Positions 10,101-35,511 of a DNA stretch of 48,000 bases are shown here, piece by piece. Under the pieces are notes generated by a model. The model was given only the letters and a program-made list of their open reading frames with translations. It searched no databases and was not told the origin of the DNA. Where the stretch lies: assembly GCA_943367755.1 (NCBI GenBank), contig CALRKB020000022.1, positions 18,020 to 66,019 on the forward strand, read 5' to 3'. A program made the position numbers and the translations under genes. Source of the stretch: Rhizobium sp. Q54 (GTDB taxonomy: Bacteria > Cyanobacteriota > Cyanobacteriia > Pseudanabaenales > Pseudanabaenaceae). Position 1 is the stretch's first letter. Each line of letters starts with the position of its first letter.

Positions 10101-11291
10101 AGCCCCCAAGGTCATTTCCTTCACTAGTTCAAGCAGTTCATGGAAAGTCGGATTTTCTTCGAACTTGACACGTAGCGCTAGCGTATTGACAAAAAAACCA
10201 ATTAAGGATTCAACTTCTCTACGGTTGCGGTTCGCGATCGGCGAACCAATGACGATATCGTCTTGTCCGCTGTAACGGGAAAGTAGCGCCGCAAATGCAG
10301 CGAACATAGTCATAAACAGAGTCGCACCGGATTGTTGGCTGAGCCTATTGAGTTGCTGGCTTAATCCGTGATCGAGTGGAAATTCAACGAAACTACCGAC
10401 AAATGTCTGAACTGATGGGCGGGGGCGATCGGTAGGTAATTCCAATAGGGGAGGTGCCGCAGCTAACAGTTCTTTCCAAAAGTTGAGTTGTTTTTGGAGG
10501 ATATCTCCAGTCAGCCATTGCCTTTGCCAGCACGCAAAGTCCGCATATTGAATGGGTAAGGATGGTAAATGAGCGGGTTCGCCCGCACAGGAAGATCGAT
10601 ATAGCTCGGACAACTCAGCGATAAATACGCCCATCGACCAACCATCAGAAATAATGTGGTGCATGGCGATTAGCAATACATGAGATGTTTCAGATAACCG
10701 GAGTAAGGTAACTCGGAGCAAGGGAGCCACGGAGAGATCGAAGGCTTGCTGAGACTCAGCGATCGCTAATTGTTTCACTTGTTCGGATTGTTCTGGCTCT
10801 GGCAAGTGTTGTAAATCTATGACTGGGAGTGCGATCGTGGTATCGCTAGCGATCGCCTGGACGGGGGCATCATTCACTAACTTGAAGCTAGTCCGCAGCA
10901 CTTCATGGCGACGCACAATTTCTCGGACAGCCATCTCTAGCGCAGTAACATTCAGAGAACCAAAGAGGCGCAGGGAAACAGGGATATTATAAGTAGCACT
11001 CGCTCCTTCTAAGTGATCGAGGAACCACAGTCGAGATTGCGCAAAGGATACGGGTAAATCTTGGTTTCGCTGAATTGGGATAATAGAATCGCAAGTAGAA
11101 TTAACCTCCAGATTACTTTGCTGGAGAAAGTTGATAACCTCTGCTTTCCGTTCAGCCAGTTCAGCGCGTATTTCAGTTGTCAACGCTCCTTTAGGTGCAT
11201 TACAGCGCAAGCGAATTTCATCTTGACTCTCCAGCCATAATTTGATGTCTGAATTAGCTAAGTTAGATAAGAATTCTTCAATGGTTTTCAT
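7140..11291 (-). CDS. NRPS, termination module: N-terminal TubC-type docking domain, then C-A-T-TE
   Basis: Docking domain [41 protein letters not shown]. C-domain motif [10 protein letters not shown]. A-domain cores [72 protein letters not shown]. T-domain [12 protein letters not shown]. TE motif GGWSFGG. Confidence 0.95.
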   Translation of the reverse strand: [1383 protein letters not shown]

Positions 11292-11360
11292 ATATTCATT
11301 CTGTAATGTTATTTTGAACTGCTGAGGCTAGTGGTTAGATAATGCATCTCGCTATCTTTT

Positions 11361-14300: not shown

Positions 14301-14714
14301 TTGCACTTCAACTTCGCGATCATGATCGAACAACTGACTGAGATCGATTTCTGTTAGTTCTACCGACTGTCCTTCAGTAATTACTTGAAATAAATTCCCA
14401 TCAACTGAAGCAAAAGCAGTTCGCAGCGCTTCATGGCGATCGATGATCGCATTGAGGGTTTGGCTCAGTGCCTCTACATTCAAGTTCCCATGCAATCGCA
14501 CCGCGATCGAGATATTGAAAGGGATATTCGGCTCCAATTGATTCAAGAACCATAATCTTTGCTGAGAAAAAGACAGGGGAGCAGGATCTGAACTTTGTCT
14601 AGGGATAATTTTGGATTTTTTTGCTCCAAGATCGACTTTCTTGATCAGACGTTCTTGTAAGAGGGCGAGCTTTTCAGGAGAGAGATTAGCGATGCGTTGA
14701 TTGAAGTTACTCAT
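11361..14714 (-). CDS. NRPS, one elongation module C-A-T with an acidic C-terminal docking tail
   Basis: C-domain motif [10 protein letters not shown]. A-domain cores [62 protein letters not shown]. T-domain [12 protein letters not shown]. The C-terminal tail [12 protein letters not shown] fits a partner for the TubC-type docking domain of the next protein. Confidence 0.95.
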   Translation of the reverse strand: [1117 protein letters not shown]

Positions 14715-14773
14715 GGTTGGTTTAGTAGGGGAGAATAGAGAAGATTAAAGATTGAAGATCGAAGATTGAATTG

Positions 14774-17700: not shown

Positions 17701-19915
17701 CCTCTGCTAGTAAGTGTTGTAAGTCTACCAAGGGAATAGAGATCGATAGATCGCTGGCAATCTCCTGGACTTGAACACCATCAACCATCTTAAAGCTAGT
17801 CCGCAATATTTCGTGGCGCTGCACGATCGCTTGTACTGCCATTTCTAACGCCGTGACGTCGAGATCGCCCGTCAACTGGAGCGGTTCTGGCATGTTATAG
17901 GTGGCGCTTCCACCTTCTAATTGATCGAGAAACCACAATCTTGTTTGAGCGAAGGATAAAGGTAAAGATTCATCGCGAGGAACTCGCACAATTGGCGGTG
18001 GTACGCGGTCGTTCAGCCATCCTTGTACTCTCATACCAGCTTCCTGATTAGCCTCAATTAATTCGCTGAATTGAGCGATCATAGGCAGTTCAAATAAGCT
18101 CCGCAAAGGCAGTTCTACCCCAAACAGCGATCGCAATTGGATAATTACCTGTGTCGCCAGCAGGGAATGTCCTCCCAACTCAAAGAAGTTGTCATGAATG
18201 CCTACTTGATGGATATTGAGAATTTCTGCCCATAGTTGTGCCAGCATTGCCTGTGTGGGAGTAGCAGGAGGGACAAAATCGGTATACCAATTTAGATCCA
18301 GATCTGGCACGGGTAGAGCCTGGCGATCTACTTTGCCATTGGGAGTTAGTGGCATCGATTCTAAGTAGACAAATGCTCCAGGTATCATATAGTCTGGCAA
18401 CCACTGGTTAAGAAAATCGCGCAAGTTGCTAGTTGTAACTGAGCGATCGGCGATCGCATAGGCAGCTAAATATAAATTTCCCAGGCGATCTGCTCTGGCA
18501 ATTACCACCGCTTCCTGCACTTGGGGATGTTGACTTAGAACCGCTTCAATTTCGCCCAACTCAATCCGAAAGCCGCGAATCTTTACCTGGCAGTCAATCC
18601 GCCCCAGAAATTCGATATTACCATCGGGGAGATAACGGGCGCGATCGCCAGTTTTATATAAACGCGCCGAGTCTGCGGGGTTAAAAGGGTTTGCAATAAA
18701 AGCCTGTGCCGTGAGAGTTGGATTATTCAAATAACCGCGTCCCACCCCAGCACCGCCCACATAAAGTTCGCCCGCCTCACCAATTGGCAAGGGTTGCAAC
18801 TGCGGATCGAGAATATATAATTGGGTATTGGAGACTGGACGACCGATTGGGAGATTTAGGATTTCCGATGCGGGTGGTTGGTAAATTGGATAATGAGTGA
18901 CATCATCCGAACATTCCGTTGGCCCATAGGCATTCATGATTGGAATACTGGGATAATACTCCAGCCACTGACGGCATAACTGGGGAGGCAGGGGTTCACC
19001 TGTAAGTAATAACCACCGCAAATTGGCTAGTTTGTGTCGAATCCCATCAAATTCTATTTGTTGGATAAGTGCGCGTAGTAGTGATGGCACGATCTCCAGA
19101 ATAGAAATGCACTGACGCTCTACAAGAGCAAGTAACTGAGTTGGGTCTGTAGTAATTTCGGTACTAATAATCTCAACTTTGCCACCAACGAGCAAAGCAA
19201 CGAGAAATTGCCAAATGCTAATATCAAAGGTTTGGGATGCTGTTTGGGCGACGATATTGCTAGCACTCAAATTCAAATCCACTATCTTCGCATATAAATG
19301 ATTCACCATCCCCCGTTGTTCGAGCATCGCTCCCTTAGGAGTGCCAGTGGAACCAGAAGTGTATATTACATAGGCTAGATTATTTGGAGTGCAGCGGATC
19401 GGCAGATTTTCCGTCGCACCTTCTACCCGATCTAAATCTTCGAGGCATAACAATTGGGGTTTAGTTTCTAATCCTTCGACAATTGGAGAAATTATCGCTT
19501 CCCATTTCTGCTCAGACAATAGCAACGCCACCTGACTTTGCGCTAATACCTGCTGCGTGCGCGTTGCGGGATAATCGGGATTTAGCGGTAGATATGCTCC
19601 ACCCGCTTTGAACACTGCTAACATCGCTGTTAGAAAATCGATATTGCGATCGCACATCAAGGCAACAATGGTTTCTGCCCCCACACCCAGTTCGACTAAA
19701 TGCCTTGCCCACCGATTTGCACGGGCATTTAATTGGTGGTAGGTTAGCTGTCGATCGTTAAATCTAACGGCGATCGCATCTGGGGTGCGCGATACCTGTT
19801 GCTCGAACAACTGGGAGAAACACTGGTCTAAGGGATAATCAGTCTTGGTATCGTTCCAATTGTGGAGCAACTGCTGCTCCGTGGTACTTAGTAGTGGGAG
19901 GTGCAAATTAGTCAT
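14774..19915 (-). CDS. NRPS, loading plus first elongation module: A-T-C-A-T
   Basis: Starts directly with a C-A-linker-like sequence ([28 protein letters not shown]) and an A domain. Two T domains ([14 protein letters not shown] twice), one C domain ([10 protein letters not shown]), and a second A domain with distinct cores ([44 protein letters not shown]). The ATG overlaps the upstream gene's stop (ATGA at 19912..19915). Confidence 0.95.
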   Translation of the reverse strand: [1713 protein letters not shown]

Positions 19916-20961
19916 GACACAGATACTCCAAATTCTTCTCGTTCTAACCAGGAAACTGGTAGAAATGACTTGATTGTGTCGCCCAGATTTTGTGCGATCG
20001 CGATTTTGTAGGCTAACTGTCCCACTGCTAAATCGAGCACGCCCAATCCAAATGGACTGAAGATCGCGAGTTGGTGATCGTCTTGGCGTGCAGGTGCAAC
20101 ACCATTGAGAATATCGCCTAGAGTACAGCGAATAAAATCGCGATTTCCTGTTTGTTGTTCGGCGAGGTGAATTGATGTTTGGGCGCGGGATACATGATCG
20201 ATATCATCAACAACGTTATCCGCCGCTAAGATGATTTCTGGGGACAAGTCTCGCAGGGAAATATGTAAGATGATCGTGCCGGGGTGACACTGAGAAAGGT
20301 CGGATATGTGCGGTTTGGCGGCGGTGGTGGCAAAAGAAACCACGGCAGAATTCCGAAAAACAGGATCGGATTCTGTAACAATAACTATCTCCAATTTCTC
20401 AGACAATTGCTGACACTTTCGTGTAAATTGTTCGGCGCGTTCTCGGCTCAGATCGTAAACTAGGACGGTTTCAATTTCTGGACAAGTGGTTAAGAGAAAC
20501 CGCAGGATTTCAAAATTAATTAACCCAGTCCCAATCATTCCCAGCGTCGTCAATTTTTGCTGGCCGCGTAATTGTTCCGCCGCGATCGCCGCACTTGCCG
20601 CAGTACGTTTGGCACTGATAATCGAGCTTTCCATAATTGCTTTGGTGTGGCCAGTTTGGGTGGAATTGAGGATTAAAGTAGCCGAAGCTCTTTCCATCCC
20701 CAAGGCGAGATTGTCTGGGAAAGAAGCAATCCATTTAATCCCCGTCGCATTCACCTCACCACCTAAATAAGCAGGTAAAGCAATAATCCGGTCTTTTTCA
20801 TGATTTGGGAATCGCAAAAAGCTGGAATGAGGCAAACAGCTATCACCTTTGGCATGGATTTGATAGGCTAATTTGACAGCTTCCAAGATCTCGCGATCGC
20901 GGTTTTGCAATAGGGTAAAAATCTCATTACCTCTTAAGAGCAGAATGTCATCATAATTCAT
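19912..20961 (-). CDS. sbnB: SbnB-like NAD-dependent dehydrogenase (ornithine cyclodeaminase / mu-crystallin family), L-2,3-diaminopropionate pathway
   Basis: The blocks RIIALPAYLGGEVNATGIKWIASFPDN and MERASATLILNSTQTGHTKAIMESSIISAKRTAASAAIAAEQL parallel S. aureus SbnB as I recall it. The gene is paired with an SbnA-like gene. I prefer the ATG at 20961 (MNYDDILLL), which lies downstream of the neighbour's stop, over the ORF-track start at 21033, which overlaps the upstream gene. Confidence 0.8.
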   Translation of the reverse strand: MNYDDILLLRGNEIFTLLQNRDREILEAVKLAYQIHAKGDSCLPHSSFLRFPNHEKDRIIALPAYLGGEVNATGIKWIASFPDNLALGMERASATLILNSTQTGHTKAIMESSIISAKRTAASAAIAAEQLRGQQKLTTLGMIGTGLINFEILRFLLTTCPEIETVLVYDLSRERAEQFTRKCQQLSEKLEIVIVTESDPVFRNSAVVSFATTAAKPHISDLSQCHPGTIILHISLRDLSPEIILAADNVVDDIDHVSRAQTSIHLAEQQTGNRDFIRCTLGDILNGVAPARQDDHQLAIFSPFGLGVLDLAVGQLAYKIAIAQNLGDTIKSFLPVSWLEREEFGVSVS

Positions 20962-20984
20962 GGCAAATTCCTGAAGATTTCTCT

Positions 20985-22094
20985 TTAATTTAGTGAATAC
21001 ATAGCAGCAGCACCAAAGTGTTCCTTGACCCAACTATCTGTATAAATTGTGTCGAGATAGCGTTCGCCGCGATCGCATAAAATCGCCGCACAAGTGGCAC
21101 CTGCGGGAATCTCTGTCAGCATTTTTCTGATTGCAGATATCACTGCACCCGATGAACCGCCAGCTAAGATAGCCTCACTCCGTAGCAATTGATAACAGCC
21201 ACTAATACATTCCATGTCGGATACGTGTATGACTCGATCCTCTAATCCAGGTTGGAACAATTCTGGAACTCGCGCCGCACCATGTCCGGGAATCAATCGT
21301 TTGCTGCGTTTGTCGCCAAAAATGACACTGCCTTTGGCATCAACAGCAATAATTTTGGTTTTGAGATTGTGGCTCTTGACATATTCCGAGCAGCCGCGCA
21401 GGGTGCCACACGTACCAGTAGCGCAGAATAAGTAGTCCAATTTACCGTCGAGAGCAGTAGCAATTTCGTGCATGGTCTGATGATGCGCGCGGACATTATT
21501 CATATTGGCGTACTGTTGACACCAAAAGCTCTTGGGAATTGAATTCAGTAATGACTTGACTCGATTAATACGAGCGGGTAGAAAATCACCAGTGATTGGG
21601 TCTGGTTCAGTGACTACATCAACTTCTGCGCCATAAGTTTTAAGGATTTTGATGTTCTGTTGGGTAGTTTTAGGATCGACAACACAGATTAGATGTAAAT
21701 TGAGTACGGCACAGGCTTGGGCTAGGCCAATTCCTAAATTTCCCGAACTGGATTCAATTATTGTATATCCGGCCTGAATATCTCCATTCTCAAATGCGCT
21801 TTTCAGCATATTTAGAGCTGGCCGATCTTTAACGCTACCACCAGGATTAAACATTTCCAACTTACCGAATAGTTGGAAATCAGCATCTTTGAAAACTTTT
21901 TCTAATTTAATTAGTGGTGTATTCCCCACCGTTGATAAAATCCCCGAATTCAATGGAAGGGCATTATGTTTTGAGGAGATGCCTACTAAATCGTGATCGC
22001 TTTGCTGCGTAACTATCAGTTGGGGGATTATAGGGGGAGCAGTTTTACTAGATCGCGAATGAGGTGGCTTAGTTTTGAACATTGGTTTTGACAT
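20985..22094 (-). CDS. sbnA: SbnA-like PLP-dependent enzyme (cysteine-synthase fold), L-2,3-diaminopropionate pathway
   Basis: The blocks GNTPLIKL, NPGGSVKDRPA, IIESSSGNLGIGLA, VVDPKTTQQNIKILKTYGAEV, IIAVDAKGSVIFGDK and ILCDRGERYLDTIYTDSWV closely track SbnA as I recall it. The likely start is the ATG at 22094 (MSKPMFK), preceded by a GGAG; the ORF-track start is 22163. Confidence 0.85.
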   Translation of the reverse strand: MSKPMFKTKPPHSRSSKTAPPIIPQLIVTQQSDHDLVGISSKHNALPLNSGILSTVGNTPLIKLEKVFKDADFQLFGKLEMFNPGGSVKDRPALNMLKSAFENGDIQAGYTIIESSSGNLGIGLAQACAVLNLHLICVVDPKTTQQNIKILKTYGAEVDVVTEPDPITGDFLPARINRVKSLLNSIPKSFWCQQYANMNNVRAHHQTMHEIATALDGKLDYLFCATGTCGTLRGCSEYVKSHNLKTKIIAVDAKGSVIFGDKRSKRLIPGHGAARVPELFQPGLEDRVIHVSDMECISGCYQLLRSEAILAGGSSGAVISAIRKMLTEIPAGATCAAILCDRGERYLDTIYTDSWVKEHFGAAAMYSLN

Positions 22095-22529
22095 ATCTAT
22101 TTTTCTCCGTGATGTCAGATATCTTGATTTTGTTTGAGCATTTCCCAAATCCAACTTCCACACAAATGGCCAAGTTCCTAGGAAGTTGATTTGAGGATTT
22201 ACTTAGTGAATGTGATGCCCAACTAGCATTTCAGTTGCTGCTTCCCTAACTGCAACAATAAGAAGTTCAGTAACCCTATTGAGATATTTCTGTCTGCTCA
22301 AAGCCCCAATTTTAGACCTTTGAGATCTCCTAATTATTTTTGTTCTGATGCCTTAAAATTGAGTAATTCTTCTCGCCTATCAAATTGGCTATAAAAACTC
22401 ATTTATAAAATAAAACCGATCTCTTTGCATTCATATAGCTAAGTATTCATTACTGATTGGGAATCAATTGTGAGTGAGATCAATCATTAACTGTGATTCT
22501 AGTCACATCTTGAAAATACAAATCAAAAT

Positions 22530-23052: not shown

Positions 23053-24612
23053 GTGGAAATTAACTTGTTGGCTGGTAGTGCTAGCGATTGGTCAGGTGAT
23101 GGTTTGGCGATCGCGCTATTTCAGCAAGATGGGGAAGATACTGGCATACTCAGTACGGCACTAATCGATCTAGATACGCATAAGCTTGCAGGTACTCTCC
23201 AGGAACTAGTTAGCGAAACCGAATTTAAAGGGGAGATGGGATCGACGGCTAACGCTAGAGTCGGGGCAAATGCCACTATTCGCAAAGTGATGCTAATTGG
23301 CCTGGGTGAACCATCTAAGGCGACGGAAGACACTTGGCGTAAAGCCGCAGCCCAAGCAGCTAAATGGGGTATTCAGTCTAAATGCAAGAGTTTGGCTCTA
23401 TCTGTACCTCTGTATAACCAGGACGAAGCGCTGACAACGCAGTCTTTAGCTGAAGGGATTTTGCTTGCTACGCATCAGGATAAACGCTTTAAATCGAAAG
23501 GTGACGGCAAGAACGATACTAAAAGTGCTGACGGTGCCAAATCTGAAATCAAACTAGAACGAGTCGATCTACTTGGCTTTGCTGCACCCGCCGCTAGAGA
23601 TGGCTTGGAGAAAGCCCAAAAGATCTGTAGTGGCGCGATCGCCGCACGAGAACTAGTGTCAGCTCCAGCCAATGTCGTAACGCCTATAACCTTGGCCGAG
23701 ACTGCCAGAGCGATCGCTGTGACATACAAAGATTGCATGAGTGTCAAAATTCTGGAAAAAGCGGAATGCGAAGCTCTAGGTATGGGCGCATTTCTTGGTG
23801 TTGCCCAAGCCTCCGATCTGCCGCCTAAGTTTATTCATCTCACCTATAAGCCAGAAGGTAACGAATCTCCCAAGCATAAGCTGGCCATTATTGGCAAGGG
23901 TATCACCTTCGACTCCGGGGGGCTGAATATCAAAGCGGGTGTGGGCAGCAGCATTGAAATGATGAAAACAGATATGGGTGGAGCTGCCGCTACGCTCGGT
24001 GCCGCAAGCGCGATCGCCCAACTCCGCCCCAGCGCAATCGAAGTCCACTTCATCATTGCTGCTTGCGAAAACATGATCAGTGGCAAGGCAATTCACCCTG
24101 GCGACATTCTTACCGCCTCTAACGGCAAAACCATCGAAGTGAATAATACCGATGCGGAAGGACGACTTACCCTCGCTGATGCGCTTGTGTATGCGGATAA
24201 GTTAGGTGTGGATGCGATCGTCGATCTCGCGACCCTAACAGGTGCCTGCGTTGTGGCATTAGGAGATAGCATTGCGGGTCTATGGTCAAACAGTGACGAG
24301 CTAGCAGCCCAAATCCAGGCTGCCTCCCAAAAGGCAGGGGAAAAATTCTGGCGCATGCCATTGGAGGAACCCTACTTCGATCAATTGAAGTCCGTGGTGG
24401 CCGATTTTAAGAATACTGGTGCTCGGGCAGGCGGCTCAATTACGGCATCTTTATTCCTGAAACAGTTTGTTGATAAGACTCCTGCTTGGGCACATCTTGA
24501 TGTGGCGGGTCCAGTGTGGACAGAGAAAGAGAATGGTTACCTTAATGCGGGTGGGACTGGCTATCCCGTGCGTACCCTGGTTAATCTGGTTACGAGCATT
24601 GCAGATAGCTAA
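23053..24612 (+). CDS. pepA: Leucyl aminopeptidase (M17 family)
   Basis: 519-aa ORF (GTG start) with the M17 signature [14 protein letters not shown] and [24 protein letters not shown]. Confidence 0.95.
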
Positions 24613-24711: not shown

Positions 24712-24736
24712 CCTCTTCCCGTGAAGAGGTTTTTTT
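24712..24736 (+). terminator. Rho-independent terminator downstream of pepA
   Basis: CCTCTTC-CCGT-GAAGAGG followed by TTTTTTT, about 100 nt after the pepA stop. Confidence 0.65.
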
Positions 24737-25268: not shown

Positions 25269-25326
25269 TTATGGGGGTGAAGGGGTTCTACCCCTTCTTG
25301 GGGGCGTTGCCCCCAAATCCCCTATT
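25269..25326. repeat. G/C-tract nested-hairpin element, copy 1
   Basis: TTATGGGGGTGAAGGGG-TTCTA-CCCCTTCTTGGGGG-CGTTG-CCCCCAAATCCCCTAT, containing AAGGGG/CCCCTT and TTGGGGG/CCCCCAA stems. A related copy lies at 26667..26751. Confidence 0.7.
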
Positions 25327-25500
25327 CGTTGGCAATAGAAGTTGCCATTGGAAGCTTATTTTTTGCCTTCCTAGTAAGTATTTTGATTTAACTTTTTCTG
25401 ATAAAGATTTTAGCCGAAACCCCTGAAATGGTAACACGGTATCTCCATCTCAGTTGGAAGTTTTAGGGTCGGTAGTTCATCTCAAATAAGAGCAAACTAT

Positions 25501-26783: not shown

Positions 26784-27809
26784 ATGATTAATAGATCGAT
26801 AGTAGTAAACAGAAATCAGATTGATGTTGCTATTTCAAAGGCACTCAATTTTATCGCTCGAAATCAACTGCCTTACGGAGAAATTAAAACCTACTTTTCC
26901 ACTGATGAAAGGATGAAAAATCGGTGTGTATTTGATAGCTCACCATTTGTCACAGCATTGGTTGTATACTGTATCAGTTTTGTGGAAGATCCAAAAGTCA
27001 AGGAAATAACCCGAAAAGCAGTCCAATTCCTTGTAGAGGAGAAAGAAATACCAGGTCTGTGGCGATTTTGGTCTTCGAGAAACCCGAAGCACAAGAGACT
27101 TCCTCCTGATTTAGACGATACTGCCTGCATTGCCTTCATTTTAAAGCAATATTATTCTCCTTTGCTTTATTCATTTCTTTTTGGTTCTAATCAAACAATT
27201 CTTCTCAATAATAGAAATGAACAGGGACTTTTTTATACTTGGATCGTACCGCCCGGACATCAAAATAATTGGGTTGATAGTGTAGTTAATGCTAATGTGC
27301 TATTTTACCTGGGCGATTGCGAAGAAACTAAGGCAGTCTGCGATTATTTGCAAGATCTGGTATTAAGCGATCGCGAAAAGGGTTCCGATCGTTCCTATCT
27401 CAGAGATTTATGCCTTTACTATTTCATGTCTAGAGCATATTTTCAGGGTGCGCGCAGACTTAAGGACGCAAAAGACGCTGTCTCAAACAAAACGATTTCC
27501 TTGCAACAAGAAGATGGTTCTTTTGGTGACGATCTGAGTACTGCTCTTGCGGTTTGTACACTGCTCAACTATCAGTATAGTGATGAAACCATTCTTGATC
27601 GCGCAGCTCAGAGTCTTGTGGAGCGCCAGCAAGAAGATGGGGCTTGGTCAAAAATCGCTATGGTAACTGGTTGCTTTTGGACTGAAGGCGCAGGAGAAAC
27701 CGGAAATTGGCTAGCAGGTTATTGGGGATCTGAGGAGCTAACAACTGCTCTCTGCATTGAAGCTTTGGCAAAATATCGAGCTTTTGAAAAAAACGTTTGT
27801 CACCCCTAA
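26784..27809 (+). CDS. Single-domain squalene-hopene-cyclase / prenyltransferase-repeat (alpha/alpha-toroid) protein with a DxDDTA motif; class II terpene-cyclase-like
   Basis: 341 aa. PPDLDDTACIAFIL (D109-L-D-D-T-A, nt 27108..27125) mirrors the SHC catalytic DxDDTA. QW-like repeats are present: LVERQQEDGAWS, ISLQQEDGSFG, FIARNQLPYGE, FLVEEKEIPGLWRFW. Confidence 0.7.
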   Translation: MINRSIVVNRNQIDVAISKALNFIARNQLPYGEIKTYFSTDERMKNRCVFDSSPFVTALVVYCISFVEDPKVKEITRKAVQFLVEEKEIPGLWRFWSSRNPKHKRLPPDLDDTACIAFILKQYYSPLLYSFLFGSNQTILLNNRNEQGLFYTWIVPPGHQNNWVDSVVNANVLFYLGDCEETKAVCDYLQDLVLSDREKGSDRSYLRDLCLYYFMSRAYFQGARRLKDAKDAVSNKTISLQQEDGSFGDDLSTALAVCTLLNYQYSDETILDRAAQSLVERQQEDGAWSKIAMVTGCFWTEGAGETGNWLAGYWGSEELTTALCIEALAKYRAFEKNVCHP

Positions 27810-27868: not shown

Positions 27869-30103
27869 ATGTTCAAAAAACCCCAATTTAAGCCTCATTT
27901 CCACATTGAAGTTGTAGAACCCAGTACCGTCTATCTCATGAGCGAGCAAGGGCATTTTGCTTTGAGTGGTAACTTCTATACCTTGTTAACTCCCTTGCTA
28001 AATGGTCAGTATACAGTTGATGAAATTGTTGAGCGGCTAAAAGCACATAAATCACTGTTTGGTATTTATCACGCATTAACCAACTTGGAAAGTCAGGGCT
28101 ACCTTACCGAAGCTGTAGACATCCCGACTGAAGTGGCAGCCTTTTGGAGTTTGCAGGGCGTAGAGCCTGGAATAGCCGTTAGTAAACTTCAAGATACCAG
28201 AGTTTCTGTAACTGCCTTCGGTAAAGTGAAAACAGAACCGTTTATCTCTGCGTTAGAGTCTCTGAACATCGAGGTTAGTAACGATGGAGACCTCACCGTA
28301 GTATTGACTGATGACTATCTACAACCGGGTTTAGGTGAGTTTAACTCCCAATCCTTACTCAGTCAAAAGCCTTGGATGCTTGTCAAACCTGTCGGTGCAA
28401 CCATCTGGGTCGGACCAATTTTTGTTCCGGGTCAAACGGGTTGTTGGCAATGTTTAGCTCAACGCTTGCAGACTAATCGTGAAGTCGAAACTGTCGTCGG
28501 TCAGCAAAAAGGAATTGTAGATCCCTTTCCCACCTCTCGGTCAATTTTACCAACCCACTTCCAGATCGGCGTAAATTTGGCAGCAACGGAAGTTGCCAAA
28601 TGGATAGCCCAGGAGGGAAACCACGAACAGCTAGAGGGCAAGTTGTTGACATTGGATCTAGCCTCACTGTCCATGCAGCACCACGTTTTAGTTAAACGTC
28701 CACAATGTCCAGCTTGTGGAGAGAAAGCTGCTTTTGAGTATCACAAATCCAAACCAATCGTGCTCGAAAGTCAGAAGAAGCGATTCACCGCAGATGGCGG
28801 CCACCGCTGTTTCACACCAGAGCAAACGCTTAAGAAATACGAACATCATATCAGCCCGATTACGGGAGTAGTCCGCGCTCTTCCCAAAAAGAAGATTGAT
28901 AGCGATCTAATTCACGTTTACGGTGCCGTTCACTCGCTGAGAAAAAATCTGGGTAGTTTAGCCGATCTACGTAGTAGTCTACGTCAAAACAGTGCTGGCA
29001 AGGGAAAGACGGACCAGCAGTCCAAAGTAAGCGGTCTTTGTGAAGCGATTGAGCGATATTCTGGCGTTTTCACGGGCGAAGAAATCTGCATCAAAGGTAC
29101 TTATACCCAACTGGAATCAGCCGCCATTCACCCAAATACATGTATGCTCTTTAGCGCCAACCAATACCAAAACCGCCAAGATTGGAACCAACAGCACGGC
29201 AGTTTTGCCTGGGTACCCAAACCCTTTAACGAGGAGCGAGAAATTGAGTGGACATCGGTTTGGTCGCTGACTCACCAACAGTTCAAGTATGTGCCAACTG
29301 CTTACTGTTACTATGGCTATCCGCTTCCCGATGACCATCGCTTCTGTCGCGGAGATTCCAACGGTAATGCTGCGGGCAATACCTTAGAAGAAGCGATTCT
29401 GCAAGGATTTATGGAGTTGGTAGAACGAGACTGCGTGGCGTTATGGTGGTACAACCGCATCAAACGACCCGCTGTGGATTTAAACAGTTTTGATGAACCC
29501 TACCTGTTAGACCTGAAAGACTATTACCAAACTCAATACCGCGACCTCTGGGTGTTGGATATCACTAACGATCTGAATATTCCCTGCTTTGCCGCGATTT
29601 CTCGACGAACTCAAGGATCTTCTGAGGAGATACTTTTGGGCTTTGGCACTCATTTCGATGCTAAAGTTGCCATGCTTAGGGCAGTTACTGAGATGAACCA
29701 AACATTGGGCATCGAACTGGACAATGGCAAAGCCGTGCCTGACGATCCAGATTGGCAGTATTGGCTTAGGAATGCCACATTAGAAAACCAGCCTTACCTA
29801 GTGGGAGATCGCCAAGTTCCTGTAAAAGTTTACTCAGATTATCCACGATACTGTCAAGATGACCTACGACAAGACGTACTCACCTGCGTAGACATTGCCG
29901 CACGACACGGCATGGAAACCCTTGTCCTCGACCAAACCCGCCCAGATATTGGTTTAAACGTCGTCAAGGTGATCGTTCCTGGAATGCGCCACTTTTGGAA
30001 TCGGTTTGCTCCAGGGCGGCTGTATGACGTTCCCGTGAGCATGGGTTGGTTGCAAGAACCTCTGACAGAAGAACAACTCAACCCAATACCGATGTTTTTC
30101 TAA
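27869..30103 (+). CDS. Fused E1-like/RRE plus YcaO cyclodehydratase of the cyanobactin heterocyclase type (PatD/LynD/TruD-like)
   Basis: 744 aa. Long blocks match PatD/LynD as I recall them: FKPHFHIEVVEPSTVYL, LLNGQYTVDEIVERL, VVLTDDYLQP, GCWQCLAQRLQTNREVE, RPQCPACG, GKGKTDQQSKVSGLCEAIERYSG, GDSNGNAAGNTLEEAILQGFMELVERD, DQTRPDIGLNVVKVIVPGMRHFW, and the C-terminal NPIPMFF. Confidence 0.9.
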   Translation: MFKKPQFKPHFHIEVVEPSTVYLMSEQGHFALSGNFYTLLTPLLNGQYTVDEIVERLKAHKSLFGIYHALTNLESQGYLTEAVDIPTEVAAFWSLQGVEPGIAVSKLQDTRVSVTAFGKVKTEPFISALESLNIEVSNDGDLTVVLTDDYLQPGLGEFNSQSLLSQKPWMLVKPVGATIWVGPIFVPGQTGCWQCLAQRLQTNREVETVVGQQKGIVDPFPTSRSILPTHFQIGVNLAATEVAKWIAQEGNHEQLEGKLLTLDLASLSMQHHVLVKRPQCPACGEKAAFEYHKSKPIVLESQKKRFTADGGHRCFTPEQTLKKYEHHISPITGVVRALPKKKIDSDLIHVYGAVHSLRKNLGSLADLRSSLRQNSAGKGKTDQQSKVSGLCEAIERYSGVFTGEEICIKGTYTQLESAAIHPNTCMLFSANQYQNRQDWNQQHGSFAWVPKPFNEEREIEWTSVWSLTHQQFKYVPTAYCYYGYPLPDDHRFCRGDSNGNAAGNTLEEAILQGFMELVERDCVALWWYNRIKRPAVDLNSFDEPYLLDLKDYYQTQYRDLWVLDITNDLNIPCFAAISRRTQGSSEEILLGFGTHFDAKVAMLRAVTEMNQTLGIELDNGKAVPDDPDWQYWLRNATLENQPYLVGDRQVPVKVYSDYPRYCQDDLRQDVLTCVDIAARHGMETLVLDQTRPDIGLNVVKVIVPGMRHFWNRFAPGRLYDVPVSMGWLQEPLTEEQLNPIPMFF

Positions 30104-30120: not shown

Positions 30121-31581
30121 ATGTCACAGCAATTCCTCCTATCTCTTAAAAAAGACATTTCCTGCATTGAATCAGACGAAACCGATCGACTCATTCTCCA
30201 ATCCTTAACCCATGCTTTGACCTTTAAACAGGTACAGTCGGGATTGAAAACAGCGCTCAGGACGCTAGCAGATGGTGGTGCCACCTTGGCAGAACTGAGC
30301 CAAATGGTACAGCAGGACGATGGAAATTTTCCTGCACTCCAGTTTTATACCTACCTGCAAAGATTCACCCACTGCGGCTGGCTTTGTCATTCAGCCTTAG
30401 CAGAAGGTCTGCCGATCGCCATTGCTATACCCATCACCTCAGATTATCAATTTCCTTATACTGAGGTCGTTGTCGAGTCCAGGTATATACTTTCCCGCTT
30501 TGCCTATTGCCACTCGGTTGAAGGGCAACTGGTACTGGAGTCACCGCTGTCTCAATCACAAGTGCTATTACTGAATTGGCAAGGAGCAGTTCTGGTGACA
30601 CAGTTAGCCAGACCTCAAAGCTGTCATGACATCCTGGCTGCAGTTCCAGGAATTTCCCTAAAAACAGTGCAGCAGTTTGTCAGCCTACTTTTAGGTGCCC
30701 AAATGCTCTCTGAGGTGGGTGAAGACAGTACTATCCAAGAACAAGCCAATACTACCCTCGCCCAATGGGAATTTCACGACCTTCTGTTTCATAGCTGCAG
30801 CCGACAAGGGAGACATGCCAATCCTTTCGGCAGAACTTATCGCTTTTTAGGCAAAATTGAGCCATTGCCTGCAATCAAACCTCGGATGTCTGAGGAGGCG
30901 ATCTCGCTATATAAACCTGACCTGGAAATCCTCAAAACGACGGAGGTATCGTTGACTCAGATTCTAGAAACAAGAAAGTCAATTCGGGAGTACGGAGAAA
31001 CTCCGATCGCTGCCCAAAAACTAGGAGAGTTTCTCTACCGCTGTGCCAGAGTCAAACACTTGAAGCAGGAAGAGCATGGAGAAATTACTCGCCGTCCTTA
31101 TCCCGGTGGAGGGGCACTATACGAACTAGAACTTTACCCCATAGTCAACCGTTGTGAGGGAATTTCCTCTGGTTTATATCACTACGATCCTTTAGCACAT
31201 CAACTGTGTCGGATTTCTGACAGAACCGAAACTGTAGATGCGCTACTCAAAAATGCTTGGCAATCAATGGGGCAGCAAGGTATACCTCAAGTTCTGATTG
31301 TGATTGCCGCCCGTTTTCAAAGGATGGCTTGGAAGTACGAATCGATGGCTTATGCAGCGATGCTCAAGAACGTCGGGGTTCTGTACCAAACTATGTACCT
31401 GGTGGCAACAGCTATGGAATTAGCTCCTTGCGGTCTTGGAGGTGGCAATTCTGATTTATTTGCGAAGGCGGCAGGATGTGACTACTACTCCGAAACGTCT
31501 ATCGGAGAGTTTGCTTTGGGTAGTCGGCTACAAGCCTTGTTGCTTCCAGATTACGAATCCACTATCACTCCTCGTGGATGA
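30121..31581 (+). CDS. SagB-type FMN-dependent azoline dehydrogenase (stand-alone oxidase, ThcOx-like architecture)
   Basis: Nitroreductase-fold core: TRKSIREY, RRPYPGGGALYELELYP, VIAARFQRMAWKYESMAYAAMLKNVGVLYQTMYLVA, CGLGGG. It has a long N-terminal extension. I prefer the ATG at 30121 (AAGGA upstream, 17 nt after the YcaO stop) over the ORF-track start at 30046, which overlaps the YcaO gene. Confidence 0.85.
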   Translation: MSQQFLLSLKKDISCIESDETDRLILQSLTHALTFKQVQSGLKTALRTLADGGATLAELSQMVQQDDGNFPALQFYTYLQRFTHCGWLCHSALAEGLPIAIAIPITSDYQFPYTEVVVESRYILSRFAYCHSVEGQLVLESPLSQSQVLLLNWQGAVLVTQLARPQSCHDILAAVPGISLKTVQQFVSLLLGAQMLSEVGEDSTIQEQANTTLAQWEFHDLLFHSCSRQGRHANPFGRTYRFLGKIEPLPAIKPRMSEEAISLYKPDLEILKTTEVSLTQILETRKSIREYGETPIAAQKLGEFLYRCARVKHLKQEEHGEITRRPYPGGGALYELELYPIVNRCEGISSGLYHYDPLAHQLCRISDRTETVDALLKNAWQSMGQQGIPQVLIVIAARFQRMAWKYESMAYAAMLKNVGVLYQTMYLVATAMELAPCGLGGGNSDLFAKAAGCDYYSETSIGEFALGSRLQALLLPDYESTITPRG

Positions 31582-33287
31582 AGCCGACTGACTCGTTTAA
31601 AAGGAGCAAAACTGTGAATTTTGTTAGACACTTGCTACAAGCCTCCTGGGCTACAGTCACGATCACCGCGATCGCAGGAATAATTAGTGGTGGATGTACT
31701 GTCTTTCTGATCGCTCTCATCGCTACAGCGATGCGTCAATCTCAGCCACCTTCTCTCCTGGAGATCGGGGGATTTATTGGGTTGTGCTGCATTCAACTGA
31801 TAACTCGCTTCATCTCGGAGGTGTCTTTAACTCGACTAGGCCAGGAAATGACATGCCACCTTCAGATGCTTCTAAGTCAACGCATTCTTGCCTCATCGCT
31901 CCGTCAGATCGAAACCATGGGTGCACCTGTACTGCTAGCATCTCTGACTGAGGATATCCAGGTCATATCGAACTTCGTCACGTTCATTCCTTTTGTCTGC
32001 ATCAATATTGTCTTTGTCAGTGGCTGTCTTCTCTATCTAGTCTGGCTTTCAGGAATACTCTTTCTTGTCCTGCTAGTCTTTCTGGGGCTGGGAATCATCA
32101 GCTTTCAGTTCCTTCAGACAAAAGCGATCTCCAAACTTAAATTAGCCCGCCAGCAGCAAGATCGTCTATTCCAACACTTCCGCGCCATGACCGAGGGCAT
32201 CAAGGAACTCAAGATGCATAGCGATCGCCGCCAGGCATTTCTCAATGAGGATCTAAAACTTACTGCTATTACCGCTAAAAACTACAAAATTGCCGGGATG
32301 ACAATCTACATTGGGGCAGCTAGTTGGGGGCAAGCGTTACAGTTCCTAATTATGGGCGTATTGCTGTTTCTTATGCCTAGTCTCCAACCAATTTCTCGCT
32401 CGGTTTTGTCAGCTTATGTGCTCACATTTATTTACATGGGCCCCTACGTGGGGCAAATTTTGAGCTTGTTGCCTAACTGGGGGAAAGCAAAGATTGCTTT
32501 ACTTAAAATCTCCGACCTCGGACTGCTCCTGGAGAGAAGTGCTGAACCTAGTGCTTTTAGCGTATCTGAGTCTGGTTCATCCTGGCAAAAGTTAGAGTTG
32601 CTGGGAGTTACCCATATCTACCGCTCTGAGCACGATGATAGTAACTTTACTCTCGGCCCACTCAATCTGACATTAAGTGCAGGCAAACTAGTTTTTATTA
32701 TTGGAGGAAATGGTAGCGGTAAATCAACCTTAGCCAAGTTACTAACTGGGTTATACCTTCCCGAATTTGGAGAAATTCGGCTTGACAGTCGTTTGATTGA
32801 TGATGCTAATAGGGAGTGGTATCGGCAGCATTTTTCGGTGGTATTCTCAGATTTTTATTTATTTGAACGTTTCCTAGGACTGCAGCAAGTTGACGAACGG
32901 GTACAGGAATATTTATTCAAACTTCAACTTGAGCATAAAGTCAAGGTTGAAGATGGTAAACTCTCAACTATAAATCTATCGCAAGGACAGCGTAAACGGC
33001 TGGCACTCCTGACAGCTTATCTAGAAGATCGCCCTATCTATTTATTTGATGAATGGGCTTCTGACCAAGACCCTATCTTTAAAAAGACTTTCTACGAAGA
33101 ACTTTTACCAATACTCAAGGCTAAAGGCAAAACCGTTTTAGTTATTAGCCATGACGAGAAATATTTTGGTGTAGCCGACCAGATCCTGAGATTAGATTAC
33201 GGTCAGATTGTTGAAAACAGTTTTGGACTAGCGAGGCAAGAAGAGTGTTTTTGTGGAAGCGATAACTTGGCCGATCGCCTGCCGTAA
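31578..33287 (+). CDS. Cyclic-peptide-type ABC exporter (SyrD/PvdE-like half transporter), no C39 peptidase domain
   Basis: 569 aa, with an N-terminal six-helix-like TMD followed by an NBD: Walker A GGNGSGKST, signature LSQGQRKRLAL, Walker B IYLFDEWASDQD. The ATG overlaps the oxidase stop (ATGA). Confidence 0.9.
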   Translation: MKPTDSFKRSKTVNFVRHLLQASWATVTITAIAGIISGGCTVFLIALIATAMRQSQPPSLLEIGGFIGLCCIQLITRFISEVSLTRLGQEMTCHLQMLLSQRILASSLRQIETMGAPVLLASLTEDIQVISNFVTFIPFVCINIVFVSGCLLYLVWLSGILFLVLLVFLGLGIISFQFLQTKAISKLKLARQQQDRLFQHFRAMTEGIKELKMHSDRRQAFLNEDLKLTAITAKNYKIAGMTIYIGAASWGQALQFLIMGVLLFLMPSLQPISRSVLSAYVLTFIYMGPYVGQILSLLPNWGKAKIALLKISDLGLLLERSAEPSAFSVSESGSSWQKLELLGVTHIYRSEHDDSNFTLGPLNLTLSAGKLVFIIGGNGSGKSTLAKLLTGLYLPEFGEIRLDSRLIDDANREWYRQHFSVVFSDFYLFERFLGLQQVDERVQEYLFKLQLEHKVKVEDGKLSTINLSQGQRKRLALLTAYLEDRPIYLFDEWASDQDPIFKKTFYEELLPILKAKGKTVLVISHDEKYFGVADQILRLDYGQIVENSFGLARQEECFCGSDNLADRLP

Positions 33288-33319: not shown

Positions 33320-34219
33320 TTATGTAACAGCGATTTGAGTGCGCTTCCCCATTGCTACACAAACAATTACTCCCACAGCAAAACTGAGAGTTGTAATTGA
33401 CAGATGTTCGCCGAGGAATGCTGCTGATGCCAGGATGGTCAGAAATGGCTGAAGCAACTGAATTTGTCCAACGCGAGCAATCCCACCTAGGGATAGCCCT
33501 TGATACCAAGCAAAAAATCCAAGCAACATACTGAAAATGCTCACATAGATAAATCCCAGCACAGCATTAACTGAAATTAAGGAGAAAGATGATGGTGCGT
33601 GTTGGATCGCGATTGGCAGTAACACAGGTGTGGATAACACAAGAGACCAACAAATGACTTGCCACGAGCCAAAGCTACGTGCCAAAATCGCTCCTTCTGC
33701 ATACCCCAAACCTGCTGCTGCAACTGCTCCCAACAAGGCCAGATCCGCTAATCGAATTGAGCCACTACCCGACCAGAGTGCAAAAGCAATTACCAGTAGA
33801 CTACCCAAACTTGCAAAAAACCATAACATGATGGAAGGCCGTTCGCCCGCTCGCCATACGCCACAAAGAGCAGTTGATAGCGGCAATAGACCAGTAATGA
33901 CCGCTCCATAAGAAGCTGGCGCATCGCGCATGGCGATCGCAGACAGTAGAGGAAACCCAATCACTACCCCAACAATGACAATACAAAATCTGGGTAGTGA
34001 TCGCAACGGGGGGATTTTTTGGCGGGTAACCACTAACAGAACTATTGATAGCCCTGCGGCAATGATCGCTCGTCCCAAACCCACAAAAACTGGATCGAAG
34101 CCTGAACCAGCCATAACAGCAACTCTAGTCGCTGGTAAGGTAAGACTAAAAATTAGTACACCCAGAAACCCATAAGCAAAACCCATCAATTCTTTCTGGG
34201 ACTGTGGATGCGTATTCAT
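33320..34219 (-). CDS. DMT superfamily (EamA-like) transporter
   Basis: About 10 hydrophobic helices in two EamA-like halves. The likely start is the ATG at 34219 (MNTHPQSQ); the ORF-track start is 34252. Confidence 0.8.
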   Translation of the reverse strand: MNTHPQSQKELMGFAYGFLGVLIFSLTLPATRVAVMAGSGFDPVFVGLGRAIIAAGLSIVLLVVTRQKIPPLRSLPRFCIVIVGVVIGFPLLSAIAMRDAPASYGAVITGLLPLSTALCGVWRAGERPSIMLWFFASLGSLLVIAFALWSGSGSIRLADLALLGAVAAAGLGYAEGAILARSFGSWQVICWSLVLSTPVLLPIAIQHAPSSFSLISVNAVLGFIYVSIFSMLLGFFAWYQGLSLGGIARVGQIQLLQPFLTILASAAFLGEHLSITTLSFAVGVIVCVAMGKRTQIAVT

Positions 34220-34299
34220 TCCGCGCCTCGAACAATCCCCTAACTTTAGCATTCGCAGATTAACTTAAAACCAAGCCCTTGATGCCTCCAACCCAATAA

Positions 34300-35511
34300 C
34301 TAAGCAATACTGCTGCGTTTGCGTGCTTCTTTGTAGGAAGTAGCAACATTTTTCAGTCCTGACTTCACCAGGTGTTGCTCCAGAATGGCAAAAAAACGGT
34401 AGCGATCGCTCCCAGTTACTACCGCTTGATTGTGTGCTTCCGCAAGGACGACGGGATAACCATAGCCCTTTTGCACTTGCGCCAAAATCAAACTAAGTGC
34501 TTGAAACCTGAGGTCAGGATCTAAGGCTGTCCATTCTGGCATTTCCACTCTGGCAATTTCCGTACCCACATGCAGATAGCAGAAATACACTGTATGTTCG
34601 CCATATTCTTGCAGGATACGCGCACTGCTCCGCCAGAGCGGACTAACTTCTCCTGGTTGCAGGAAACGATGCCAGAGCGTCGCATCTCGTAAGGGTTGCA
34701 GCACACTACAGGGAGCGCGATCGATACTTTGGTTGGTAGTACTAATGCAGTGGGTATTACAGTCTGGCTGAGCGAAAGGGCAGGCTTGGAGACGCAAAAA
34801 GTTAGTTGCCTCCGTACTGCGAGGCGCACTGATATATCCCACCATCGGAATGCGATCCTGGCGCAACCGCTCCCACGCCGCCAGTATATCCGGCAGAATT
34901 TTTGCCCTTGCTTCTGGCGGTAACATTTCCAAAGACCAATGAATCAAGGAACCGTCGCTCATAGCTAGGACAGGCCCAAACAGCGGATGAAGACTTTTCT
35001 GCTCGCAGGCCAAATCGGCTAGAGCAATCGCTTCAGCCACATTCCGCTTGAGTGTCATCCACTCCTCGGTTTGGATCCCCCACTGCCTCGCGCCATAGAG
35101 ATCTTCAGGTTTGTAATATACCTCTGGCCGATTATCAAGCACGGGATAGATACTGGAGCCATAGTGCAGAGCGACTCTGCCGACATTAATTAAGTAGCAA
35201 TAGGCAATCTCGTGGCGGCTAGGCGCAATCTGGGAACCATCAGTAGCTACAACCGTATGCGGCGAAGTAATCGGCGCGATCGCATGTTGGCTCTCTAGCG
35301 GTTCCACGGGCTCAGCGCAGTTAAATGCCAGGCGATCGCCCCATGCCTGTCGTTGTTGCCGTCGCAAAACTTGATGCGCGATCGCATCCTGAAATAGAGA
35401 CTCCGCCAGATCTAGCTTGTGGGCGAGTGATTTTGCCTCATGCGCTAGTTGCTCTGACATCCCTTGCATTTGTGCCGCTACTTTGAGCAAATCCAGCATA
35501 ATTATCGTCAC
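34300..35511 (-). CDS. NurA-domain nuclease-like protein
   Basis: 403 aa. VVATDGSQI and MSDGSLIHW resemble the Asp-Gly-Ser catalytic blocks of NurA 5'-3' nucleases. I recognise the overall family from conserved cyanobacterial homologues, but only loosely. Confidence 0.5.
   Translation of the reverse strand: MTIIMLDLLKVAAQMQGMSEQLAHEAKSLAHKLDLAESLFQDAIAHQVLRRQQRQAWGDRLAFNCAEPVEPLESQHAIAPITSPHTVVATDGSQIAPSRHEIAYCYLINVGRVALHYGSSIYPVLDNRPEVYYKPEDLYGARQWGIQTEEWMTLKRNVAEAIALADLACEQKSLHPLFGPVLAMSDGSLIHWSLEMLPPEARAKILPDILAAWERLRQDRIPMVGYISAPRSTEATNFLRLQACPFAQPDCNTHCISTTNQSIDRAPCSVLQPLRDATLWHRFLQPGEVSPLWRSSARILQEYGEHTVYFCYLHVGTEIARVEMPEWTALDPDLRFQALSLILAQVQKGYGYPVVLAEAHNQAVVTGSDRYRFFAILEQHLVKSGLKNVATSYKEARKRSSIA

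Follow-up and report, generated by a model that had tools for sequence, protein, structure and literature searches.

Why does an operon for an azole-modified peptide carry, between its precursor gene and its cyclodehydratase gene, a gene that resembles a terpene cyclase? The question is raised by a 48,000-nucleotide stretch of contig CALRKB020000022.1 (assembly GCA_943367755.1, deposited as Rhizobium sp. Q54 and placed in the cyanobacterial family Pseudanabaenaceae), which as a whole is referred to here as the window. The gene at 26784–27809 on its forward strand encodes a protein, C, that is very probably a class II terpene cyclase, its activity being predicted. Its upstream neighbor encodes a second protein, P, whose structural model identifies it as a predicted ABBA-fold prenyltransferase. 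We consider it likely that P and an active C are the two halves of a split prenyltransferase-cyclase maturase, in which P prenylates the ribosomal precursor peptide and C, acting second, cyclizes the attached chain.

The open reading frame (ORF) of C starts with ATG and encodes 341 amino acids, with its candidate acid motif in the context PPDLDDTACIAFIL. The identical gene call is present in an independent public assembly (L081), in agreement with the sequence-only reading of the window that had proposed this gene. C falls into one cluster (at least 90% identity) with WP_019499726.1, which Pseudanabaena sp. PCC 6802 encodes and which is annotated as a 'hypothetical protein'; the operon of this culturable, axenic strain from a culture collection is near-identical to that of the window. 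The label 'hypothetical' in routine annotation follows from the match to the Pfam model SQHop_cyclase_C, which at 24.1 bits falls just under the cut-off of 26.1; in the Pfam and NCBIfam scans of C, all squalene-cyclase matches were sub-threshold. A single-sequence search of the PDB was similarly weak (E 0.04–1.7), and the protein could be placed only by means of a profile and a structure model.

The AlphaFold2 model of C, built from an alignment of 112 homologs, reached a predicted local distance difference test score (pLDDT) of 95.2 and a predicted template modeling score (pTM) of 0.94. When this model was compared with the PDB by Foldseek, the best 37 matches were all class II terpene cyclases, with query template modeling scores (TMq) of 0.56–0.74. 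The best of them were the drimenol synthase AsDMS (E 1e-14, TMq 0.73), the monodomain cyclases 8pak/8paj, the structure 6ij1, and MstE (TMq 0.70–0.72), and the lower ranks held SsDMS, squalene-hopene cyclase (SHC), oxidosqualene cyclase, and ent-copalyl diphosphate (CPP) synthases. The homology was also recovered by sequence, as the C-family profile aligned with AsDMS at E 2.5e-25 over residues 35–316 (about 280 residues), and residues 243–284 of C were aligned by profile to the QW repeats of SHC. The single-toroid class II cyclase suggested by the sequence-only reading is thus matched by a monodomain fold, with MstE, 8pak/8paj, and AsDMS among its best structural counterparts. The four QW-like repeats listed in that reading were likewise confirmed, and the family shows little or no variation at their key residues (Q28/G32; F82/E86/G91/W93; G245; Q282/G286/W288).

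The profile alignment also covers the acid motif, DLDDTA, which lies at residues 109–114 as originally read. D109/L110/D111/D112 of C align with D321/L322/D323/T324 of AsDMS, in which D323 is the general acid (PMC12232559). D111 also aligns with D376 of SHC, whose motif PDVDDTAVV is in register, and the crystallized 'D333N' mutant carries an Asn in the D111 column. Since the motif occupies a homologous column in characterized class II cyclases, it is not a chance match, and the earlier proposal that it protonates the substrate gained a proven general acid as its counterpart. In the alignment of the 112 homologs, D109 and D111 are among the 12 invariant columns. Across 344 family members, D109 is invariant (344/344), D111 is retained in 340 (three Glu and one Gly in the others), and D112 in 317, the last position varying to V/T/C/S/A/N in 8% of the family. 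The conservation expected of the DxDD motif therefore held for its first and third positions and failed solely for the fourth, which is dispensable, and the same division was found in the YcaO-linked homologs of the closest cyanobacterial clade, where D-x-D is kept and the fourth residue varies. AsDMS itself reads DxDT, with equal tolerance at this position, and in class II cyclases just the 'middle' Asp has been described as strictly conserved within an 'occasionally variable DXDD motif' (PMC12232559). The family also contains 17 columns that are at least 85% aromatic among its 344 members.

A further set of columns bears on the substrate. The phosphate-binding residues R368, R370, and R415 of AsDMS are replaced in the C family by Asn or Asp, by Asp, and by a variable residue, respectively. 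The loss of these arginines, as read from the alignment, suggests that the substrate of C is not a free diphosphate. The AsDMS phosphate-binding loop at the active-site mouth is also where a one-residue insertion of C maps, namely W163 (nucleotides 27270–27272), which directly precedes a conserved V-D-S-V-V-N-A-N stretch and is common to 5 of the 344 family members.

The homolog search with C returned 649 matches, and an exhaustive profile search collected 1007 cluster representatives at E<=1e-30, that is, at least 1000 clusters when counted at 50% identity. A genome scan located the family in 263 species, archaea included. Apart from the distant relatives AsDMS and AstC, no characterized member was found, so the C family is very large and essentially uncharacterized.

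The gene for P was missed by the sequence-only reading, although it stands directly beside that of C. P has no family match in Pfam or NCBIfam, models of the LynF/PatF type included, and none of its roughly 200 homologs, which are mostly cyanobacterial, has a Pfam domain in the P region. Its AlphaFold2 model (pLDDT 86.5) folds into five alpha-alpha-beta-beta repeats, and the best 46 Foldseek matches in the PDB were all aromatic ABBA prenyltransferases, including EpzP, NphB/Orf2, FamD1, AmbP1/3, IptA, DMATS1, the cyanobactin geranyltransferase PirF, and fungal DMATS enzymes. The invariant Arg, Lys, Tyr, Asp, and Glu residues of P sit on the strands of the modeled barrel. About one third of the listed P homologs are fusions of 600–650 residues to a UbiE-like S-adenosylmethionine-dependent methyltransferase (P0150–P0198 and others), an arrangement that recalls the methyltransferase-prenyltransferase fusions of cyanobactin pathways, and fused and stand-alone copies can be found on one contig (P0230/P0236 and P0160/P0196).

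That P and C act together is indicated by proteins in which both are joined. P0280, a P-C fusion of 691 residues, is 31% identical to P in its N-terminal half (E 5e-48) and 41% identical to C in its C-terminal half (E 6e-73, with DLDDT), and it is neighbored by a Nif11 precursor, a PqqD/RiPP recognition element (RRE) protein, and two P450s (RiPP, a peptide made by the ribosome and modified after translation). This protein came from the exhaustive profile search; a concatenated P+C query gave mostly single-domain matches and only distant fusions (P0257, P0261, and P0262). P0298 has the P-C order and P0261 the reverse, C-P, while P0262 joins a P homolog to an MstE-like cyclase and adjoins a Nif11 gene. 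Prenyltransferases of other kinds are also fused to the C family. Many Nostocales and Oscillatoriales have fusions to UbiA enzymes that additionally contain PhyH, TPR, thioesterase, or methyltransferase domains, and a DMATS-like domain was found as a fusion partner too. Fusions to P450s and acyltransferases were found as well, the family adjoins P450s in 25 of 80 loci, and in Rubrobacter it adjoins polyprenyl synthases.

Further arrangements were noted in the C family. Giant proteins of 900–1800 residues in many filamentous cyanobacteria combine the cyclase domain with UbiA, PhyH, and TPR domains and sometimes a thioesterase or methyltransferase (L013, L025, L032, L034, L036, L037, L039, L044, L053, L055, L059, and L060); they look like single-polypeptide meroterpenoid factories, of which we found no description. 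Several proteins of 650–670 residues (P0267, P0287, and P0356) carry a cyclase domain 38–44% identical to C behind an N-terminal domain of about 340 residues. This domain neither matches a Pfam model nor resembles P, and it may be another type of prenyltransferase partner. The family also occurs in methanogenic archaea (L023 and L038, Methanoregulaceae) and in a further archaeon (L069). In L023, a P homolog (8050–9177) lies about 750 nucleotides upstream of the cyclase, beside sugar-nucleotide enzymes, and no RiPP genes were present among the neighbors scanned.

In the window, P and C are embedded in an operon of the NHLP/Nif11 branch of thiazole/oxazole-modified microcins (TOMMs; linear azol(in)e-containing peptides). 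The RiPP context proposed by the sequence-only reading was borne out by a Nif11 precursor, an E1-like/YcaO protein, a ThcOx/SagB oxidase, and an ATP-binding cassette (ABC) exporter. YcaO cyclodehydratases form azolines from Cys, Ser, and Thr. The fused cyclodehydratase of the window matched TIGR03604 (E 3e-82), TIGR03882 (E 2e-51), Pfam YcaO (E 8e-108), and a DUF4423-like winged-helix profile; the two TIGR models, as well as TIGR03605 for the oxidase, scored above their cut-offs. The genes of P and C follow that of the precursor and precede that of the YcaO protein, all on one strand; the gaps are short, and none holds a convincing terminator: the precursor is 278 nucleotides upstream of P, and P and C are 170 nucleotides apart.

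This arrangement is not confined to the window. Genes succeed one another as precursor(s), P, C, YcaO, and ThcOx in L081, L082, L084, L086, L090, L091, L092, and L002, so that at least eight cyanobacterial loci retain this order despite differences in the genes that flank it; L003, a ninth locus, has the same genes in another order, its precursor and P standing behind the ABC gene. The gene that follows ThcOx varies, being a P450 in L082 (12783–14150), a FAD-binding protein in L084 (9740–11239), and a protein of about 480–520 residues without a Pfam match in L086 (7483–8934), L090 (12752–14233), and L092 (8815–10374). The window has none of these post-ThcOx tailoring genes. Their distribution suggests extra, clade-specific tailoring, possibly terpene oxidation.

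Comparison of the precursors points to a likely acceptor. The core of the window precursor, ...EDVPMTYTLSACY*, has Tyr as its last residue. Among 12 precursors (that of the window and 11 homologs from syntenic loci), the cores are hypervariable and rich in Cys, Ser, and Thr, and yet eight end in Tyr (SACY, CGCY, QYSY, NNGY, PSGY, GGVY, CGCY, and GCAY), while the other four have a Tyr one to six residues from the C-terminus. The core contains no Trp in any of the 12; unlike this clade, the Nif11 peptides beside fused P-C homologs (L088 and L089) carry a D-W motif. Since YcaO and ThcOx account for Cys, Ser, and Thr, P is the sole remaining candidate for modifying the conserved Tyr. An earlier suggestion that Tyr serves as the prenyl acceptor gains support from this terminal or near-terminal placement.

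From the computed folds of P and C, the cyclase homology, the aligned position of the catalytic Asp and its conservation, the joined and syntenic genes, and the Tyr common to the precursors, we infer the activity, chain length, acceptor residue and atom, and order of steps in the following scheme. P would move a C15–C20 isoprenoid from a housekeeping prenyl diphosphate onto the leader-bound Nif11 precursor, most likely at the Tyr that is conserved at the C-terminus of the core (...TYTLSACY). C would take the peptide-tethered chain into its barrel, presumably lined by aromatic residues, where D111 of the D109-x-D111-D112 motif would protonate the terminal (distal) C=C bond, and the ensuing carbocation cascade, perhaps with the phenol as its quencher, would yield a polycyclic terpene. 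YcaO and ThcOx would turn Cys, Ser, and Thr into azoles, and the ABC transporter would export the product.

A principle of this kind has precedent. Hubrich et al. 2024 (Chem 10:3224) reportedly introduced the bifunctional maturases NctPC and ChrPC. According to the passages of a 2026 review that deal with them (PMC13290415), prenyltransferase-cyclase maturases that furnish ribosomal peptides with cyclized geranylgeranyl groups were described in 2024. In these passages, NctPC is an ABBA prenyltransferase of low similarity to cyanobactin prenyltransferases joined in one polypeptide to an MstE-like cyclase; the enzyme attaches a geranylgeranyl chain to a Trp of the RiPP and cyclizes it afterwards. 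ChrPC has a prenyltransferase domain resembling trans-isoprenyl diphosphate synthases. The product name 'steromaze' is cited in a passage of PMC13647313. The concept of a terpene-cyclized RiPP has therefore been in print since 2024 and is not novel here. As far as the review passages go, NctPC resembles the window in pairing a monodomain-type class II cyclase with an ABBA peptide prenyltransferase of low cyanobactin similarity. The precedent and the window also share a large structured leader (Nif11 in the window, with the fused homologs L088 and L089 also beside Nif11 genes) and the cyclization of a long isoprenoid chain after its attachment, the same order as we propose. By the same passages, the window differs in having P and C as separate genes and in the presence of YcaO/ThcOx azole enzymes in the pathway. 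Its cyclase belongs to the AsDMS/AstC-like clade (profile E 2.5e-25) and is not close to MstE (E 5e-5).

Several observations weigh against the scheme. Close YcaO-linked orthologs of C read DSDA, DLDV, and DVDV, so that D112 varies even among these. P, which is 8–14% identical to known ABBA enzymes, reaches TM scores of only 0.35–0.53 with them. The gene cluster contains no prenyl diphosphate synthase, which leaves primary metabolism as the necessary source of the donor. The greater part of the wider C family, in about 260 species, lies outside RiPP contexts, with UbiA, P450, and glycosyl- or sulfotransferase genes nearby, and family membership alone thus implies no peptide substrate; linkage to YcaO is confined to the closest cyanobacterial clade, in 3–4 of the 80 genome loci. 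Finally, both precedents, as the review passages describe them, modify Trp, whereas the window core lacks Trp and has a conserved terminal Tyr, and the two systems are set apart from the window by these descriptions, not by their sequences.

The order of the two steps could be reversed, with C cyclizing a free prenyl diphosphate (for example, geranylgeranyl diphosphate to a copalyl-type product that keeps its allylic diphosphate) and P transferring the cyclized group. Fusions between prenyltransferases and cyclases, and the synteny of P and C, fit either order. AsDMS, its nearest characterized sequence relative, and the CPP synthases do act on diphosphates, but the arginines by which AsDMS binds phosphate are precisely those not conserved in the C family. 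Monodomain MstE, by the titles of its PDB entries, acts on an aryl-bound chain, and in the RiPP precedent prenylation comes first and cyclization second (PMC13290415, in the passages concerned). We regard the reversed order as unlikely.

It is likewise improbable, in our assessment, that P and C serve a meroterpenoid sub-pathway to a small molecule, with a non-peptide aromatic acceptor as in the merosterolic acid pathway of MstE, and merely lie within or beside the azole-peptide operon. The non-RiPP surroundings of most family members, and the P+C pairs L017 and L023 in Acidobacteria and archaea, which have no RiPP genes among the few neighbors scanned, would be in line with such a role. In the window and its syntenic loci, however, P and C are inserted on the same strand between precursor and YcaO with the order kept, no gene for the synthesis of an aromatic acceptor is present, no enzyme other than these is a candidate to modify the terminal Tyr, which is conserved although the cores are hypervariable elsewhere, and the fused homolog P0280 adjoins a Nif11 precursor and an RRE protein. 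Alpha/alpha toroids do serve many functions, and C has weak Pfam matches to TED, cobalamin-binding, and epimerase toroids, but a non-catalytic role for it (as a scaffold, chaperone, or immunity protein binding peptide or lipid) or a chemistry like that of LanC or the protein prenyltransferase beta subunit is very unlikely, as the conservation of D-x-D and of polar and aromatic residues across about 340 diverse members argues for catalysis, the family has no conserved His column and C115, its sole frequent Cys column, reaches just 83%, which excludes Zn-toroid chemistry. Identification of C as a LanC or beta-subunit toroid was accordingly rejected, with neither an Asp/Cys/His nor a Cys/Cys/His set of Zn ligands present and no such fold among the best 50 structural matches; the peptide-binding or prenyl-transfer toroid offered as an alternative in the sequence-only reading is disfavored on the same grounds.

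Comparison with other characterized enzymes further defines what is shared and what differs in the proposed split maturase. MstE from Scytonema (PDB 6sbb–6sbg) is a cyanobacterial protein of the same size as C, with the same single beta-domain barrel, and, instead of a diphosphate, it takes a polyprenyl chain carried by a phenolic ring (geranylgeranyl dihydroxybenzoate) as its substrate. Structural identity between the two is nevertheless just 14–16%, with E values of 0.6 by phmmer and 5e-5 by profile, and MstE differs in acting on a small molecule in a meroterpenoid cluster rather than a RiPP cluster. AsDMS (Aquimarina spongiae) and fungal AstC are the closest characterized relatives by sequence (E 2.5e-25 and 3.4e-11, respectively) and share with C a beta-only cyclase domain with the general-acid motif in the same column. 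Both are fused to a HAD phosphatase domain, which C lacks, and are covered by the Pfam family PF28380 (AstC-like_C), to which several members of the C family have faint precomputed matches; AsDMS acts on free farnesyl diphosphate.

For P, the relevant counterparts are the cyanobactin-type enzymes PagF, LynF, PirF, and LimF and the lanthipeptide enzyme MppC, with which it has the ABBA barrel in common. Prenylation of Tyr is established chemistry for PagF and LynF. Tyr O-prenylation is also listed among the prenylations of RiPPs (PMC13290415), and MppC recognizes a Nif11 leader (PMC12715784). P is distinguished from these enzymes by the absence of detectable sequence similarity (no TIGR/NCBIfam/Pfam match), and the groups transferred by known ABBA peptide prenyltransferases are C5–C10 and are not cyclized afterwards. 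The window also lacks the PatA/PatG proteases of cyanobactin pathways, a feature it shares with the NHLP/Nif11 TOMM clusters (Haft 2010; Cox 2015, PMC4603692). Like the window, these combine a Nif11 leader and hypervariable cores with a ThcOx-like oxidase and with a fused cyclodehydratase akin to the cyanobactin D proteins. The 2015 survey (PMC4603692) does not mention terpene- or squalene-cyclase-like genes for this group, and it is by P and C, as a predicted second, lipid-type modification, that the window differs from the clusters surveyed.

Ribosomal peptides bearing cyclized terpenes are not known from before 2024. The characterized terpene-cyclizing RiPP maturases that we found in the literature number only two, both fused and both acting on Trp, and the present locus, with a P and C pair that is split and of simple genetics, is apparently an azole-linked, Tyr-directed variant of the principle published in 2024. 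It is possible, although we would not call it probable, that the product is an azole-containing linear peptide whose C-terminal Tyr bears a long isoprenoid cyclized by an AsDMS/AstC-like cyclase working in trans with a stand-alone ABBA prenyltransferase of no known family; we found no report of such a product. If this were true, it would be, as far as the literature found extends, the first ribosomal peptide with a polycyclic terpene anchored to Tyr, and also the first case in which TOMM chemistry is combined with that of a terpene cyclase. The C family would then be a large clade of cyclases acting on acceptor-bound prenyl chains in bacteria and archaea, recruited independently by three kinds of prenyltransferase (UbiA, the ABBA family of P, and DMATS-like). 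Two 'hypothetical' proteins, one of them from a family without a Pfam or NCBIfam model, would gain a function, and their separate, portable prenyltransferase and cyclase parts would serve peptide engineering, with a wider acceptor scope and scaffold space for genetically encodable terpene-peptide hybrids. The repeated prenyltransferase fusions of the C family also offer a handle for mining meroterpenoid and lipopeptide pathways.

Features of the operon and of its cyclase gene, with positions in the window and the basis of each assignment
Feature	Position	Strand	Basis
Terminator-like hairpin and T-run, likely 5' operon boundary	24712..24729	+	7-bp stem with 4 G-C pairs, followed by TTTTTTT
Nif11-leader precursor, 96 aa	24932..25222	+	Pfam Nif11 E 1.9e-8; TIGR03798 below cut-off
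P, putative prenyltransferase of ABBA fold (PT-barrel), 370 aa	25501..26613	+	Fold
C, monodomain (beta-only) class II terpene-cyclase-like alpha/alpha barrel	26784..27809	+	Fold and family profile
DLDDTA motif of C, residues 109–114, D111 the predicted general acid	27108..27125	+	Alignment to AsDMS; conservation
Fused cyclodehydratase, 744 aa: winged-helix leader-binding, E1-like, and YcaO parts	27869..30103	+	Profile matches
ThcOx/SagB-type flavin mononucleotide (FMN) azoline oxidase (azoline to azole)	30121..31581	+	Pfam ThcOx, HTH_57, Nitroreductase; TIGR03605 E 7e-55
Cyclic-peptide-type ABC exporter without C39 peptidase domain	31614..33287	+	TIGR01194 E 2.8e-134

The start positions given for the oxidase and the exporter are those of the gene calls in the public assembly L081; the mechanically defined ORFs start at 30046 and 31578, respectively. 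The hairpin stands 3' of an upstream M17 aminopeptidase gene. It is a consensus match alone, the promoter and terminator scan of the region having returned no more sites than shuffled sequence, and it was the sole noteworthy site of that scan. A small ORF at 25271–25426 was considered as a second precursor and rejected, as it has neither Nif11 nor core-like features.

The M17 gene (leucyl aminopeptidase, 23053–24612, forward strand) lies directly upstream of the precursor, as does its counterpart in the syntenic locus L091 (4374–5924). Because the operon has no dedicated leader protease and the ABC exporter no C39 domain, removal of the leader could fall to this aminopeptidase, although it may be no more than a housekeeping gene conserved at this position. 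The cluster probably reaches its 3' boundary at two downstream genes on the opposite strand, for an EamA transporter (33320–34252) and a nuclease-like protein with a NurA domain (34300–35511), which the public contig L081 has as well. In L084, a LytB/IspH gene (13161–13615) some 1.5 kb beyond the downstream end of the cluster, for the last step of the methylerythritol phosphate pathway, may reflect a local boost of isoprenoid supply or may be a coincidence.

Further upstream in the window, a separate nonribosomal peptide synthetase cluster occupies 5834–22163 on the reverse strand. It comprises a major facilitator superfamily transporter (5834–7147), a condensation-adenylation-thiolation-thioesterase protein with a TubC docking domain (7140–11291), a condensation-adenylation-thiolation protein (11361–14714), a protein with two adenylation modules (14774–19915), an ornithine-cyclodeaminase-like protein (19912–21033), and a pyridoxal phosphate-dependent, cysteine-synthase-like protein (20985–22163). 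The last two (19912–22163) appear to resemble SbnB/SbnA, which make L-2,3-diaminopropionate, and the same pair adjoins the RiPP cluster in L091 as well.

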